Shown: in pieces, positions 1 through 5,405 of the stretch | How the letters are laid out: every line of letters begins with the position of its first letter | How positions within the stretch are numbered: position 1 is the first letter of the stretch | Origin: Candidatus Galligastranaerophilus intestinigallinarum | GTDB taxonomy: Bacteria > Cyanobacteriota > Vampirovibrionia > Gastranaerophilales > Gastranaerophilaceae | Assembly: GCA_018715855.1 (NCBI GenBank) | Contig: DVKW01000109.1 | Span: 1 to 25,264, forward strand | Reading direction: 5' to 3' | DNA: 25,264 bases | Program-made: the position numbers and the translations under genes | Notes under the pieces: generated by a model | Seen by the model: the letters and a program-made list of their open reading frames with translations, nothing else | Database searches by the model: none | What the model was told of the DNA's origin: nothing

Positions 1-80
1 CTATAAATTAGCCTCAAAGTTCCAACAACTCGGCAATTTAGACTCAAAATCCTTATCTCAAATGTCCTGATAAACTATAC

Positions 81-391
81 TTGGATCCTGACAGGAACTT
101 AATGAGGTTAAATATATTAATGGTAAAATTCGCGCCTTGGAGACTCTGCCGACTGAAAAAGTGACTAAATGTCACTTTTGAAGGAGAGGGCAAAAGCGAA
201 GCGATTGCACAAGGGCAGGAACTTAATGAGGTTAAATATATTAATGGTGAAAATTCGCGCCTTGGAGACTCGGCCGACTGAAAAAGTGACTAAATGTCAC
301 TTTTGAAGGAGAGGGCAAAAGCGAAGCGTTTGCATCCCGACAGGAACTTAATGAGGTTAAATATATTAATGGTGAAAATTCGCGCCTGGAG
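81..391. repeat. Tandem repeat downstream of tRNA-Arg: two full ~125-bp units (92-215, 216-340) plus a partial third (341-391) that runs into the tRNA 3' end
   Basis: CAGGAACTTAATGAGGTTAAATATATTAATGGT(G)AAAATTCGCGCCT starts at 92, 216 and 341 (periods 124 and 125). Units 1 and 2 differ by one indel, two substitutions and the last 6 nt. TTGGATCCTGA (81-91) resembles TTGCATCCCGA (330-340). Confidence 0.95.
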
Positions 392-454
392 GGATTCGAA
401 CCCCCGACCTTTTGGTTCGTAGCCAAACACTCTATCCAACTGAGCTACAGGCGC
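381..454 (-). tRNA. tRNA-Arg (anticodon ACG), CCA not encoded
   Basis: The reverse complement folds as GCGCCTG TA GCTC AGTTGGATA GAGT G TTTGG CT-ACG-AA CCAAA AGGTC GGGGG TTCGAAT CCCTC CAGGCGC G. Confidence 0.97.
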
Positions 455-698
455 AAATATTAAATTTTCAAATTTCCCATGTCAGTTGGATAGAGCTTGA
501 TTTTTCCTATTGTTTGAATTTTGTTTTCAACAAAATATCAAACGGCCAACTGAGCAAGAGAGCGCAAATATTAAATTTTCAAATTTCCCATGTCAGTTAT
601 TATAGAGTTGAATTTTTCCTATTGTTTGAATTTTGTTTTCAACAAAATATCAAACGGCCAACTGAGCTACAGGCGCATAAAAATATTTAATTTTCAAA
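436..698. repeat. Tandem repeat upstream of tRNA-Arg: ~110-112-bp units starting at 436, 546 and 658 (third partial), each containing the tRNA 5' end
   Basis: CCAACTGAGC..GCGC occurs at 436, 546 and 658. Positions 658-676 are an exact copy of the 19 tRNA 5'-terminal nt (GCGCCTGTAGCTCAGTTGG on the minus strand). The unit bodies 455-545 and 566-657 are nearly identical. Confidence 0.95.
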
Positions 699-730
699 CA
701 TTTTGCCAAATGCGACAAAACAACATAACT

Positions 731-758
731 ATTCTACCCAAAAAAGCTAAATAATCAA
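731..758 (-). promoter_or_regulatory. Putative sigma70-type promoter for the tRNA-Arg locus
   Basis: Minus strand TTGATT (753-758), 16-nt spacer, TAGAAT (731-736). It lies directly after the TPR gene stop codon. Motif match only. Confidence 0.5.
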
Positions 759-2444
759 CTAAAACCTTTTGTTATTTTTAATTATTGTTTCACTGCCTCT
801 TACAATAGAATTCCAAAATTCAGATTCATGGATATTTCCCGATTTTTCAGCGATATCTGCAGCAAACTTTTTGTAGTTCAAGTCGTTTGGTTCAATTTCA
901 ACAGCTTCTTTAATATACAACATGGCATCATTATAAAAACCAAGGCCAAAGTTGCTAACAGCTGCTTGAAAATAATATTTTGCAGGCTGCGGGTTTAGTT
1001 CAAGCGCCGTTGTAATTAAGCTAAGCGCTTTTTTGTATTCTTCTTTTTTATTTAAAATTAAACCTTTAAAATAATAGCTTTCGGCATTGTTTTTATCTAA
1101 TTCAATTAATTTATCCAAAGAATTAATTGCGCTATCATATTCTTTTTTTCTGTAAAAAATTCTTGCTTTTGAATTTAAAAAGCTTGCAATTTCACCGTAA
1201 GAAGAATATTTTTCAATCAATTCTTCCGCTTTTTCATACATTTCATTATCAATCAATAAATCAACATATTCTGAAACCGTATGAATGGAATCGGGGTAAT
1301 GTTCAAGGTGTTTTTCATAAAATTCCATTGCTTTTTTATCAAGTTTTAAATCTTTATAAATTGAACCCAAAGTATCAAGAAGTGTTAAATCATCTCTAAC
1401 TTTCGGGTTTTCATTATATATTTTTTCAAGTTTTTCTTTTGCAGATACAATTTCCCCCTTTTTATATTCAACAACTGCTCTTAAAATTTCTGCCTGAACC
1501 TTAAAGTTAGACATAGGGTCAATTAAAGTTAAATTAAAAAGTGCGTTATCATAATCTTTTTGTTTTTCAAAAACCCAAGCCAGCAAAAGATACCTTTTAT
1601 CAATTGCGCTTTTTGGTTCGTTTTGTTGAATGCAAAGCGTGATAGATTTTTTTAATGTAGCAATCGCTTCATCAAACCAGTTTACATCCATATAAGCTTT
1701 TGCAAGCTCCAAATAAAATTCTTGAAAAATTCCTTTGCTTAATTTAATTGCAAGGTGGAAATTATCAATTGCTGCAAAAAAATCCTTCCTTTTAACCTGC
1801 ATTAAAGCCTTATAATAATAGCTCATAGGGTCTTTTTTAATTTTTAAAATTTCATCCATTAATTTTTCGGAATTTTTATAATCGCCTTCGTTAAAATAAA
1901 TTAAAGCAAGGTCAAATTTTGCTTCACAAAATGTGGGCGACAATTCAACCACTTTTTTTAAAATTTCTTTTTTGTTTTTATCATCTAAAAGTGAAATTAT
2001 ATATAAAATATCAGGATCGCCTTTTAATTCATCATCAAGCCCTTCATATATTTTTAAAATTTCATTTGCCCTTCCCAATTTTAAAAGCACGCTGAAATAT
2101 TTAACAAAATCTAATGGTTTCTTTGAATGTTCGCAAATTTTTTGAATTAAATTAAGGGCTTTATTATATTCTTTTAAAAGAAAATGAATTTCATAGAGCT
2201 TGTTTTGGCTATGTTCGTGGTTTTTATCAATCTCTAAAACCTTTTCATATTGTTCACTTGCTCTTTCATAATTTTTCAATAAAAAATGCAAATCTGCGAT
2301 AGATGAAATAACTTCTACTGTTGTTTTCTCATCCACATCATCACTTAAAACTTTGTATAAAACCTCAATTGCTTCCTTATAGAGCTTTTGGTTTTTTAGT
2401 TCAAAAGATTGTTTAATATATTTTATGTAATCATTATTTTCCAT
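759..2444 (-). CDS. Tetratricopeptide-repeat (TPR) protein
   Basis: 561-aa ORF with many ~34-aa helical repeats, e.g. AESYYFKGLILNKKEEYKKALSLITTALELNP and AKYYFQAAVSNFGLGFYNDAMLYIKEAVEIEP. Confidence 0.85.
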   Translation of the reverse strand: MENNDYIKYIKQSFELKNQKLYKEAIEVLYKVLSDDVDEKTTVEVISSIADLHFLLKNYERASEQYEKVLEIDKNHEHSQNKLYEIHFLLKEYNKALNLIQKICEHSKKPLDFVKYFSVLLKLGRANEILKIYEGLDDELKGDPDILYIISLLDDKNKKEILKKVVELSPTFCEAKFDLALIYFNEGDYKNSEKLMDEILKIKKDPMSYYYKALMQVKRKDFFAAIDNFHLAIKLSKGIFQEFYLELAKAYMDVNWFDEAIATLKKSITLCIQQNEPKSAIDKRYLLLAWVFEKQKDYDNALFNLTLIDPMSNFKVQAEILRAVVEYKKGEIVSAKEKLEKIYNENPKVRDDLTLLDTLGSIYKDLKLDKKAMEFYEKHLEHYPDSIHTVSEYVDLLIDNEMYEKAEELIEKYSSYGEIASFLNSKARIFYRKKEYDSAINSLDKLIELDKNNAESYYFKGLILNKKEEYKKALSLITTALELNPQPAKYYFQAAVSNFGLGFYNDAMLYIKEAVEIEPNDLNYKKFAADIAEKSGNIHESEFWNSIVRGSETIIKNNKRF

Positions 2445-2547
2445 AAGTAAATTATATAATTTTTTAAAACATTTGTAAAAAAGTTAATATTCTTGCAAAA
2501 AAAGAAGCAAAATATTAATATATTTTTAACAATAAAAGGATTTAAAA

Positions 2548-3441
2548 ATGACCGAAAACGAAAAAGCACGCATACAAAGAGAAGTCAGCCTGCAAAATTT
2601 AAAAGGCAAACCAAAATTATCAAAAAAAACAGCAAACAGCTTTAATTTAGCAGCTTTTGCTTTCCCTGTAATATATAATTTTGTTTACAAAAGAAAAAAG
2701 CTTGCAATCACATTTTTAATTTTAACTTGGATACCCCACTTTATTAATCACTTTGTATCATCAGGGTTTTATTTAACACTTGTTATTACAATTTCAATAT
2801 TAACTTTATTATTAGCCTTTATTTCAGGCTTAACAGGCAATAAAGACGCCTACAATGCAAGAAATTATGACGATGAAATTGACTTTTTAAAAAGCCAAAA
2901 ATGCTGGCTGCCTTTTTCAATTGCAGCAATTGTTGTTCACATTTTAATATTTCCAATGCAAATTACAGGCCATACAAATACAATTCAAATGTTAAAATTA
3001 GCGGAAGCTAAGGAAACTTTAAAACAAGCCGTGGTAAATGGCGCTAATGATGGCAATTTGCTTGGTGTAAATACTGTTGAAAATGATATTCCCGCTTATT
3101 TTGCAAAATATTTAAAAAAAGGCAACTTTAACGGCACAGATACAATAACAATGCCAAACGGAACAACCTTTAAAATAGAAGGCTATTTATACGAATGCGG
3201 CTCTAAAAAACAAAATACATATTATGAACAAAAAACTTCTTGCGCAACCGTTACGATTGATTTAAACGGCAACAAAGGCCCAAATGAAGCAACTTCAATG
3301 GATGAACTTGAAAAAATCAGAAGCCTTGTAAATCGTTCAACAAAATTAAAAGATATATACACTCTCTACGTTTATAACGATGACCTTGCCGCAAAAGCAG
3401 GAACTGTTGAGCAATTTGCGCTTGAAAGATTTGAAAAATAG
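2548..3441 (+). CDS. Membrane protein: N-terminal multi-TM domain (FNxAAF, DUF2628-like) followed by a pilin-like globular domain
   Basis: 297-aa ORF with AAGGA RBS. It has hydrophobic segments at about aa 32-47, 52-95 and 120-137, then an amphipathic helix and a C-terminal C..C.TVTIDLNGNKGPN motif. Family assignments are from recalled motifs. Confidence 0.6.
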   Translation: MTENEKARIQREVSLQNLKGKPKLSKKTANSFNLAAFAFPVIYNFVYKRKKLAITFLILTWIPHFINHFVSSGFYLTLVITISILTLLLAFISGLTGNKDAYNARNYDDEIDFLKSQKCWLPFSIAAIVVHILIFPMQITGHTNTIQMLKLAEAKETLKQAVVNGANDGNLLGVNTVENDIPAYFAKYLKKGNFNGTDTITMPNGTTFKIEGYLYECGSKKQNTYYEQKTSCATVTIDLNGNKGPNEATSMDELEKIRSLVNRSTKLKDIYTLYVYNDDLAAKAGTVEQFALERFEK

Positions 3442-3456
3442 CAAATGAACTTTTTC

Positions 3457-3485
3457 ATGACAACAGAATTTTTTTATATTATTAT
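3457..3485 (+). promoter_or_regulatory. Putative promoter for tRNA-Thr and the kinase
   Basis: ATGACA (3457-3462), 17-nt spacer, TATTAT (3480-3485). Motif match only in AT-rich DNA. Confidence 0.35.
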
Positions 3486-3504
3486 GTAGTAAAGATGGTT
3501 ATTT

Positions 3505-3577
3505 GCCGATGTAGCTCAGTTGGTAGAGCAATCGATTCGTAATCGATAGGTCGTGCGTTCAAGTCGCATCATCGGCA
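3505..3577 (+). tRNA. tRNA-Thr (anticodon CGT)
   Basis: GCCGATG TA GCTC AGTTGGTA GAGC A ATCGA TT-CGT-AA TCGAT AGGTC GTGCG TTCAAGT CGCAT CATCGGC A forms a full cloverleaf. Confidence 0.97.
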
Positions 3578-3596
3578 AATTAAAGAATTTAGAATA

Positions 3597-5405
3597 ATGA
3601 AAAAAAAGTTTGAATTCAGTTTATCAACACAAAATAAACTAATAATTACGGGGTTAGTTGTTTCTACTGCAATTATTATGGCAGTTTCATATTTTGCAAT
3701 CGATAAAATAAGAGAAAAACTTTATGAAAACTATGCAAATTCAGGCCAGCTTTTAGGCAGAACAATTGCCATTCAAAGCTATGAATTAATGAAAAAATCT
3801 GATGTTCAATCTAAGAAAAATTTGTTCAGACAACACGCCAAGCTTGTTTTAGAGGGCAATTCGGATATTTCTTTTGTAACCCATAAAGATGCAAACAACA
3901 AAATAATATATTCAACAACGGAAGAATACCCAAAAAGAGAAAAAGACACCAAAACCACTCTAACAACGCCTGTTTTAAATGAAAAAGGAAACGTTGTGGG
4001 GTATGTTGAAATTGGGCTTAATGCAAACCTTGCAAAATCTATTTCAAATACAACAAAAAATTCAATGCTTGTTGTGTTTGCCATGATGTGGCTTATTTAT
4101 ACAATAGTAATTGTTCTAAACACCATTTTAATAAGGCGGGAATTAGCCATTTTGAGATTAGGGGTTAAAGAAATTTCAAGCGGAAATTTTGGAACAATTT
4201 TAGAAAACGAACAAACAACAGGTGAAATTAAAGAATTATTCACGGCCTTTAACGATATGAGCCAAAGGCTTCATTTATATGAAGAACAAAACATAGACCA
4301 ATTAACATTTGAGAGAAACAAATTTGAATCTGTTTTAATGGGCATTGCAAACGGGGTTGTCGTGTGCGATAAATTCGATAAAGTTGTTCTTGTAAACCCA
4401 TCTGCTCAAAAGCTTTTAAATAAAACCATTTTAAATTCTTCAATTTTAGATTTTGTTGATTCTAAGGGAATAAAATGCTTTAAAACAGGCATTGAAAAAT
4501 TTAAACAAACCCCGATAGATGAAGCGGAAAATAAGCCCCAATCTTTCACAATAACAATAGAAAAAAAAGTTATAAAAGCCATTGTTTCATCTATGTATTC
4601 AAATGTACATGATTATTTAGGCTATATCATAATCTTAATCGACATTACAAAAGATGCTGAAATTGACAAATTAAAAAGCGATTTTATATCAAATGTTTCC
4701 CACGAATTAAGAACGCCTGTTACAATTTTAAGAAGTTATGCAGATACTCTTTATAACTATGGCGAAGATTTCAGTTTTAAAGAACAAAAAGAATTTATCG
4801 GAATTATAAACGATGAAATTATTCACCTAAATAGAATGGTAAATGACATTCTTGATTTTTCAAAAATAGAAGCTGACACAAAACTTGAAAAACAATATCT
4901 GGATATTTCATCTACAATTGAAAAAACCCTTGTGGGGCTTAAAGTTTTAGCAGATGAAAAGAAAATGAAAATTTTTCTTACAAAACAAGACGAGCTCCCT
5001 TTAATTTTATACAACGAAGAAACAATTGAAAGAGTTATAAACAACCTCGTTACAAACGCAATTAAATATTCGCCCGAAAAATCAAAAATAGAAATAACCG
5101 TTGGGCTTACTGCAGACCATAATTATGTAAAAGTCAGCGTAAAAGACCATGGAATAGGAATTGCGCCTGAACTTTTGGATAGAATTTTTGACCGCTTTTA
5201 TAGAGTTGAAAACACAACCCACACAATAAAAGGAACGGGTTTAGGGCTTCATTTGGTTAAAACCGCAATAGAAAAACAGCACAACGGAAAAGTTTTTGTG
5301 GAATCAGAACCGAATAAAGGTTCAACTTTCAGCTTTATTTTGCCTTTACAAGAAGATTTTATTCCTGAAAATAAAAAAGCAGACTATAAGCCGGATTCTG
5401 TTTAA
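3597..5405 (+). CDS. Sensor histidine kinase (TM-periplasmic-TM-HAMP-PAS-HisKA-HATPase), NblS/Hik33-like
   Basis: H-box FISNVSHELRTP, N-box NNLVTNAIKYS, G1 DHGIGI, F-box FDRFYRVE and G2 GTGLGL. There are two TM segments, a HAMP (GEIKELFTAFNDM) and a PAS (GIANGVVVCD...VNPSA). The NblS-like call is from recalled similarity. Confidence 0.9.
   Translation: MKKKFEFSLSTQNKLIITGLVVSTAIIMAVSYFAIDKIREKLYENYANSGQLLGRTIAIQSYELMKKSDVQSKKNLFRQHAKLVLEGNSDISFVTHKDANNKIIYSTTEEYPKREKDTKTTLTTPVLNEKGNVVGYVEIGLNANLAKSISNTTKNSMLVVFAMMWLIYTIVIVLNTILIRRELAILRLGVKEISSGNFGTILENEQTTGEIKELFTAFNDMSQRLHLYEEQNIDQLTFERNKFESVLMGIANGVVVCDKFDKVVLVNPSAQKLLNKTILNSSILDFVDSKGIKCFKTGIEKFKQTPIDEAENKPQSFTITIEKKVIKAIVSSMYSNVHDYLGYIIILIDITKDAEIDKLKSDFISNVSHELRTPVTILRSYADTLYNYGEDFSFKEQKEFIGIINDEIIHLNRMVNDILDFSKIEADTKLEKQYLDISSTIEKTLVGLKVLADEKKMKIFLTKQDELPLILYNEETIERVINNLVTNAIKYSPEKSKIEITVGLTADHNYVKVSVKDHGIGIAPELLDRIFDRFYRVENTTHTIKGTGLGLHLVKTAIEKQHNGKVFVESEPNKGSTFSFILPLQEDFIPENKKADYKPDSV

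Follow-up and report, generated by a model that had tools for sequence, protein, structure and literature searches.

Direct repeats of a tRNA end are a hallmark of integrative elements, and the tandem accretion of such elements is known. In Escherichia coli, the 178-bp tyrT repeats (rtT) lie in tandem directly downstream of a tRNA gene, each of them ending in a copy of the tRNA 3' end. Here we analyse a tRNA-Arg(ACG) gene which is flanked on both sides by arrays of short units carrying its own nearer end. It is located on a stretch of 25,264 nt (the window; positions 1 to 25,264 of the forward strand of contig DVKW01000109.1, GenBank assembly GCA_018715855.1), the first contig of a 252-contig, 85%-complete metagenome-assembled genome (MAG) from the chicken gut, referred to below as G000. 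The organism, Candidatus Galligastranaerophilus intestinigallinarum, is a relative of cyanobacteria and belongs to the order Gastranaerophilales (gut Melainabacteria). The arrays are a lineage-wide feature of Gastranaerophilales and not a peculiarity of tRNA-Arg.

In having tandem downstream units with a tRNA 3' end, the locus resembles the tyrT repeats. These are, however, confined to one tRNA and to its 3' side, whereas the units described here occur on both sides, at many tRNAs and at 5S rRNA genes, and comprise a dispersed hairpin cassette, an inverted copy of the broken tRNA arm and a break in the D-loop or T-loop. Similarly to integrative elements and cis-mobilizable elements (CIMEs), the tRNA is restored by a supplied end copy, the old end is left as a direct repeat and the units are stacked in tandem. 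They differ from such elements in that no integrase was found, the units are 100-200 nt long, the 5' side is commonly used, the local flank is duplicated and one cassette serves many tRNAs. A literature search found no published description of the arrangement, and its occurrence at tRNA and 5S rRNA genes across the order is apparently undescribed. The present analysis adds a more detailed anatomy, a rule for the polarity, the case of 5S rRNA, figures on covariation, enzyme profiles with a negative outcome and an empty/filled pair of sites with a long local duplication. There is in our judgement about an even chance that the units are tiny non-autonomous DNA cassettes which insert at loop breakpoints, are rendered harmless by re-copying of the gene end and are amplified by unequal recombination.

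Anatomy of the tRNA-Arg(ACG) Locus

The intact tRNA-Arg(ACG) gene is placed at 380-455 by ARAGORN and at 381-454 by Rfam (RF00005, 70.3 bits), on the minus strand like all the features given in this section. On the tRNA strand, a promoter-like site comes first and is followed by a copy of the tRNA 5' end, two units of ~111 nt, the gene itself, two 125-nt units and part of a third. A preliminary description made from the sequence alone had reported arrays of two units on each side, with unrelated bodies and with the nearer tRNA end in each unit. All of this was confirmed, the gene and its arrays by ARAGORN, Rfam and repeat finding, and the partial third downstream unit is an addition to it.

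Repeat finding resolved the upstream array of ~111-nt repeats into 490-560 and 602-672 (93% identical) and 451-487 and 562-598 (100%), and the first 20 nt of the tRNA recur exactly at 658-677. Each upstream unit is made up of a hairpin (35 nt), the D-arm in reverse complement (14 nt), 5' flank (~26 nt) and the start of the tRNA (its first 19-20 nt). The outermost old 5'-end copy (658-676, 19 nt, an exact repeat of 436-455) is broken in the D-loop after ..CAGTTGG. It is followed by the hairpin cassette of unit 1 (622-656), a reverse-complement D-arm copy that has decayed in comparison with 482-495 (593-607), a copy of the 5' flank (566-592) and the second old 5'-end copy (546-565), whose mutated acceptor part is common to the relatives G011 and G001. 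Next come the hairpin cassette of unit 2 (510-544), predicted like that of unit 1 from its fold and from compensatory changes between species, and an exact 14-nt reverse complement (482-495) of the D-arm (430-443). The latter, an inverted repeat lying across the breakpoint, is perfect in this proximal unit and tracks the species' own D-loop. The re-copied 5' flank beside the intact gene (455-481), a direct repeat of 566-592, is homologous to the flank in unit-free sister species.

The downstream array consists of two 125-nt copies (125-249 and 250-374, 94% identical) and a third, partial copy (81-128). A unit starts with ~36 nt of 3' flank, followed by an inverted copy of the T-arm border that is worn; a hairpin of variable sequence and the core (46 nt) come next, and 11 nt copied from the tRNA 3' end close it. 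In this frame, the units 255-379 and 130-254 terminate in TCCAAGGCGCG, a copy of the tRNA 3' end at 381-390. The first copy of the 3' flank (345-380; second and third copies 220-255 and 96-130) starts with sequence homologous to the flank of the unit-free genome G008. Next to it lies the worn reverse complement of the T-arm/acceptor border (334-344; second 209-219, third 81-95), at a place where many other copies have a clear inverted T-arm. The variable hairpin hpX (315-333; second copy 190-208), predicted from its fold, has a different sequence in sister species and is still a hairpin there. The dispersed core M1 (267-312, second copy 142-187) reads TCTC, stem, TGAC-ATTTA-GTCA, stem, TCGGC(C/A)GAGTC, and is delimited by other genomic copies and by covariation. 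The old tRNA 3'-end copy (256-266, second 131-141) matches 381-390 with one extra A. Single-strand folds of the upstream and downstream unit types are both more stable than those of shuffled sequences (z -3.3 and -3.3). Rfam covariance models run at a permissive threshold on positions 1-4000 of the window detected nothing but tRNAs above chance, and no family matched the units.

The putative promoter that had been noted at 731-758 was recovered in a consensus scan as TTGATT-16-TAGAAT. It is kept in sister species with and without units and is probably the ancestral tRNA promoter. A second promoter-like match, CTGACA-17-TAATAT, is present in each upstream unit (456-485 and 567-596), ending 1-2 nt before the start of the tRNA or of the tRNA fragment. 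Its start site would fall inside the tRNA, and it is therefore not taken as a promoter.

Spread of the Cassette Across the Order

The downstream core, composed of CCTCTC, a covarying hairpin and TCGGCAGAGTC, recurs in G000 beside tRNA-Met, tRNA-Thr(GGT), tRNA-Ile and tRNA-Leu, and behind every copy lies an end fragment of the tRNA concerned. According to a census of the G000 contigs, end-fragment copies adjoin at least 10 tRNA loci. They were found on the 5' side of Arg-ACG, Arg-TCT, Asn, fMet, Ile and Thr-GGT, on the 3' side of Arg-ACG, Met and Ser-GCT, and on both sides of Leu-GAG. In the sister genome G002, other tRNAs bear units (Glu, Pro, Lys and Ala). The suggestion that the unit bodies would occur at other tRNAs in varying copy number is thus borne out by the downstream core and not by the upstream body, which was found nowhere else in the genome.

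Among species-representative genomes, the core pattern is present in at least 120 stretches, nearly all of them from Gastranaerophilales/Melainabacteria MAGs and including the complete genome MEL.A1. In the complete genome, the 13-nt loop-and-stem motif occurs 36 times as compared with 0-1 times for the control. The same architecture is seen at 5S rRNA genes, where the units are 213 nt long and the fragment extends from an internal loop to the gene end. The core is also found between genes and upstream of pilin-like genes.

Several other observations were made in these genomes. In MEL.A1 (G041), ~10 cassette copies lie within a conserved ~470-nt region (e.g., at 890415, 776294, 514468 and 1494858) upstream of pilin-like genes that are divergent in orientation and encode a prepilin N-terminus; the region looks like a leader shared by a gene family or like a recombination region. 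A second cassette family (CGCCTGCCCC, hairpin, GGGCGAC) is present at G000:C219:5265-5344, C50:3071-3149, C46:6755-6830 and C180:11397-11456. It sits behind the terminators of protein genes, with the terminator regions duplicated, and also at tRNA-Thr(GGT) in G002. In G002 ARAGORN also predicts a tRNA with the anticodon TTA ('tRNA-Stop'; G002:C5:55945-56017), which may be a suppressor tRNA or a miscall.

Structure, Polarity and Breakpoints

The figures on polarity, fragments, flanks and alignments are drawn from 80 loci (92 copies) among the core-pattern matches listed. A fixed frame is shared by the 74 distinct aligned copies: CTACCTCTC, an outer stem, TGAC-ATTTA-GTCA, the stem partner and TCGGCAGAGTC. 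The outer stem is free in sequence and keeps its pairing, with compensatory change at seven pairs and 135 double-change cells against 37 in shuffles (0/500 shuffles). A C.C mismatch in the hairpin is kept in 54 of the 74 copies. Together, the conserved loop, the free stem and the kept mismatch give the cassette the look of a hairpin that may be recognised by a protein. In addition, the CTCT motif 5' of the hairpin can pair with AGAG at the cassette 3' end.

The polarity of the cassette is fixed, pointing away from the gene: it is sense to the gene on the gene's 3' side and antisense on the 5' side. A tRNA lies on the 5' side of the cassette in 45 of the 92 copies and solely on its 3' side in one. 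GAGTC is always directly abutted by the outer gene fragment, which corresponds to the last 11-13 nt of the gene or to the reverse complement of its first 16-19 nt. These fragments start in the D-loop (5' side), at the border of T-loop and T-stem (3' side) or in a 5S rRNA loop.

Outward from the gene, the modules are the re-copied gene end with its flank, the inverted broken arm, sometimes a hairpin and direct arm bases, the cassette and the old fragment. Between gene and cassette, local alignments revealed the remainder of an old gene copy, in which the 6-30 nt on the inner side of the breakpoint are repeated directly. It is preceded by a true reverse complement of roughly -13 to +4 around the breakpoint. 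This inverted copy crosses the breakpoint and was therefore templated on the intact gene. Modules on the 3' side often have one more, variable hairpin between the inverted and the direct copy. A role as a target-complementary guide was also considered for the stretch left of the cassette and rejected, since the alignment shows part of this stretch to be copied directly from the old gene, with the true inverted copy before it.

The upstream units of the window share this plan with a hairpin of their own, in which six pairs show compensatory change, and they are conserved at the locus across at least two genera. Their antisense D-arm follows the D-loop of the species (CAGTTGG or CAGCTGG), and the distal unit copies at Arg-ACG decay.

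Copy Number and Authenticity of the Arrays

The downstream array begins 81 nt from the contig end, two further contigs fork from its sequence, and window positions 1-136 have no coverage in the four sequencing runs examined. For this reason, the downstream copy number of the strain is uncertain. The ends of the forking contigs (G000:C246:3071-3196 and G000:C106:9143-9300) consist of the tRNA end, the flank and the first 31 nt of the downstream unit as in contigs C1 and C153, and then diverge; they represent variants between strains or second copies, and the assembly breaks at them. A larger parent element was considered for them and rejected, as both contigs carry ordinary genes. By-eye inspection of their listed open reading frames (ORFs), with no family search, found no integrase or transposase.

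Most of the stretch is present in many chicken-gut runs from several studies, and the junction between the two upstream units is bridged by unitigs in two of four independent chicken-gut runs; these public runs consist of short unitigs and show presence and junctions, not copy number, transcript ends or the difference between RNA and DNA carry-over. In those sister species whose assemblies are far more contiguous, the number of units at this locus is 0, 1, 2 or 3 on the upstream side and 0, 1 or 2 on the downstream side. Between G000 and G011, Arg-ACG has two versus three units and Arg-TCT one versus two. The arrangement is genuine and varies between species: since its junctions are found in independent metagenomes and sister species have 0-3 units, it is not an assembly artefact, which the preliminary description had left as an alternative.

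Mis-assembly at a contig end would fit the position of the array and the forking contigs, and a neutral duplication of local sequence through slipped replication, involving neither a mobile nor a functional unit, would fit the gain and loss of units between species, as expected from unequal crossover. We nevertheless hold this combined explanation to be very improbable. Arrays are found in independent runs and in contiguous sister assemblies, and slippage cannot produce a motif that so far exceeds its control, an always abutted cognate fragment and a fixed polarity.

An Empty and a Filled Site

Comparison of 21 tRNA loci common to G000 and its close relative G011 showed that G000 has an empty 3' side at tRNA-Gly(GCC), where G011 has a filled one between flanks of 96% identity; the site is also filled in G001. 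The extra 148 nt comprise a 68-nt insert and a repetition of the final 8 nt of the tRNA together with ~70 nt of local flank. The insert is composed of 7 nt complementary to the 3' strand of the T-stem, TAACCTCT, a hairpin and GTTGAGTC. In the 78-nt duplication, the gene-proximal copy bears extra mismatches near its far end. The pair shows one event, in which a 68-nt cassette was gained together with a 78-nt local duplication rebuilding the gene end.

At other loci the duplicated stretch is 32-35 nt (tRNA-Pro), ~50 nt (the window) or more than 150 nt (5S rRNA). The lengths vary too much for a fixed-length target duplication, which was rejected. Units also change as wholes, as in the tRNA-Glu array of G002, where two different cassette alleles lie between identical flank copies.

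Most of the evidence agrees with the earlier proposal of tiny elements inserting at the D-loop and T-loop. It is supported by the core dispersed beside many tRNAs with their own end fragments, by breakpoints in the D-loop and at the T-loop/T-stem border and by the varying copy number. It is not supported by the confinement of the upstream body to this one locus of the genome, by the failure to find a mobilising enzyme or by the empty/filled pair, which is a long local duplication and not a simple insertion.

Could the Units Act as RNA?

An explanation at the RNA level, possible in our view but unlikely, is that the units are selected structured leaders and trailers of the tRNA precursor that control its processing, termination or stability, the tRNA-end copies and the antisense D-arm acting by pairing with the tRNA or with each other. 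Conservation of the upstream unit at its locus across at least two genera would agree with this, as would the compensatory changes in its hairpin and the match of the antisense D-arm to the D-loop of each species. The conserved promoter is upstream of the whole array and the units should therefore be transcribed; metatranscriptome contigs indeed cover leader and trailer units, a signal not distinguishable from DNA carry-over. Sister species with the same tRNA, however, have 0-3 copies and the distal copies decay, which argues against necessity. Copies of this cassette are also present in 5S rRNA, in intergenic positions and ahead of pilin-like genes, and where the cassette lies on the 3' side of a tRNA, it is usually past the terminator. 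Because it is read in sense at gene 3' ends and in antisense at 5' ends, there is no RNA form that the two sides share. In quasi-palindrome correction, template switching takes place between nearby inverted repeats, and such switching can keep an antisense copy matched without selection.

The gene-centred symmetry, in which the two sides have opposite sense relative to the transcript, favours an element acting at the DNA level over one acting at the RNA level. No support was obtained for the related proposal of the preliminary description that a precursor is cut at tRNA-like ends into small RNAs. The tRNA-end copies at this locus are only 10-19 nt long, too short to mimic a tRNA, and, with the 5'-side cassette antisense to the tRNA transcript, there is no RNA motif common to both sides.

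Comparison with Other Hairpin Elements

In terms of size and distribution, the cassettes resemble the REP/BIME/REPIN-RAYT systems, being short, abundant, non-coding, lineage-specific hairpins with a conserved core and a covarying stem, located outside coding sequence and often behind genes. REPs and REPINs are, however, imperfect palindromes of 20-40 nt with a GTAG or CGTC head, whereas the 74-copy consensus CTACCTCTC...TCGGCAGAGTC has no such head, and the Y1 gene of REPIN-RAYT systems is missing from most cassette-bearing genomes, with none beside the cassettes. To our knowledge, REPs do not abut gene fragments or duplicate their target.

With the miniature IS200/IS605 elements ('peel and paste') the cassettes have in common a hairpin near the end, a 5' motif pairing with the 3' end, a precise joint, the lack of terminal inverted repeats and a fixed polarity. 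IS200/IS605 elements make no target duplication and use a fixed target of 4-5 nt, in contrast to the 32 to more than 150 nt duplicated here; the cassette has one hairpin instead of two, and the Y1 transposase is mostly absent. A classical miniature inverted-repeat transposable element (MITE) is also a poor match: the ends CCTCTC and GAGTC are not inverted repeats, and the duplication is long and variable instead of short and fixed.

Search for a Mobilising Enzyme

No transposase, integrase or reverse transcriptase tracks the cassettes. Y1 family PF01797 was not detected in G000 (only 85% complete), G002, G003, G005 or G007, and no cassette motif lies near the Y1 gene present in G011. The tyrosine recombinase family PF00589 has no match on the window's contig, in line with the earlier remark that no integrase is near the arrays, and the integrases of G000 are only on other contigs. 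One of them, a 322-aa tyrosine recombinase (G000:C220:1051-2211), is encoded ~570 nt downstream of tRNA-fMet, which has a 5' unit too; the region may be a classical integrative element at that tRNA.

The C220 gene and the tRNA-end direct repeats flanking the units could be taken to mean that the units are scars of integrase-driven elements which brought a replacement tRNA end, were deleted down to their ends and were stacked by accretion. We regard this as improbable. Apart from the absence of an integrase from the window's contig, none was seen among the listed ORFs of contigs sharing the downstream unit, which were inspected by eye with no family search. The flanks of the 92 copies have no gene in common, and viral contigs hold no copy. 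Furthermore, the 5' side is used as often as the 3' side, 5S rRNA genes are used too, the second flank copy at tRNA-Gly is local and not imported, and the same cassette is found at many different tRNAs.

Insertion Model and Points Against It

Any model has to cover the precise joint in a loop, the outward polarity, the long and variable duplication, the inverted copy of the intact arm, the whole-unit changes and the lack of a linked enzyme. Insertion of small DNA cassettes, the reading we favour, could proceed as follows. A single strand of the loop-coding DNA would be broken at a defined place, and the 3' end would be extended, re-creating the gene end and a variable length of flank while displacing the old strand. 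The cassette would then be joined to the displaced old end; with the gene end re-created and the cassette on the displaced end, the insertion would therefore be harmless. Alternatively, the hairpin cassette might cap the broken end. Arrays could afterwards grow and shrink through unequal recombination, and the inverted arm copy could be kept in line with the gene by template switching between the two. The window's upstream units may be an older, locus-bound lineage of the same architecture.

The direct-inverted-direct triplet of arm copies may point to template switching at the gene's own short palindromes. For inverted triplications (origin-dependent inverted-repeat amplification, ODIRA), two template switches at short inverted repeats have been proposed (PMC4689423). 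The likeness is in the direct, inverted and direct copies of the target arm, whereas the ODIRA events are large and sporadic; the copies found here have a length of 10-20 nt, recur and always go with a defined cassette and a defined breakpoint.

More tentatively, and with more doubt than confidence, the cassettes may form a new class of DNA element which targets the loop-coding parts of highly expressed structured-RNA genes and survives because its own insertion mechanism re-copies the broken gene end. Such a class could insert by two conceivable routes, in which either a nick in the loop leads to displacement synthesis or a broken end is capped by the hairpin cassette. The activity might come from a protein not yet recognised or solely from the replication and repair enzymes of the host.

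Several results weigh against cassette insertion. The Y1 transposase is found in 16 of 41 relatives and a reverse transcriptase in 12 of 41, and G000 and G002 have neither. Clustering of the 1.8-kb flanks of the 92 copies by tblastx gave synteny groups only and no common gene, and no copy of the core was found in a search of 2.9 million viral contigs. A source copy is not visible either for the tRNA-Gly insert, which occurs nowhere else in the G011 and G001 genomes, or for the upstream hairpin body, unique in its genome. Some copies are inherited and not recent, the tRNA-Val copies of four MAGs having the same 2-nt deletion. The outermost flank is often unrelated to the inner flank, which simple duplication predicts only after long divergence, and the origin of the inverted arm copy is not accounted for by any testable step. 

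Insertions of IS200/IS605 elements are biased towards the lagging-strand template. In MEL.A1, the ratio of cassette copies on the two replication strands is 26:10, and it drops to 16:10 without the ten copies in the upstream region of the pilin-like genes. The cumulative GC skew of this genome places the origin near 1.16 Mb and the terminus near 0.28 Mb, and more than half of its 42 tRNA/tmRNA genes are head-on to replication; a head-on majority of these genes is unusual for bacteria.

Implications

The arrays break assemblies, and they can mislead predictors of tRNAs and of genomic islands that use tRNA-end repeats as integration scars. If cassette insertion with re-copying of the gene end is true, it explains why tRNA and 5S rRNA genes across the order are wrapped in arrays of their own fragments. 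The arrays would then be a natural marker of strain history and would point to an unknown loop-specific DNA-breaking activity. It would also mean that selfish DNA can occupy the most conserved, essential genes without intron-like splicing, by rebuilding the gene end that it breaks.
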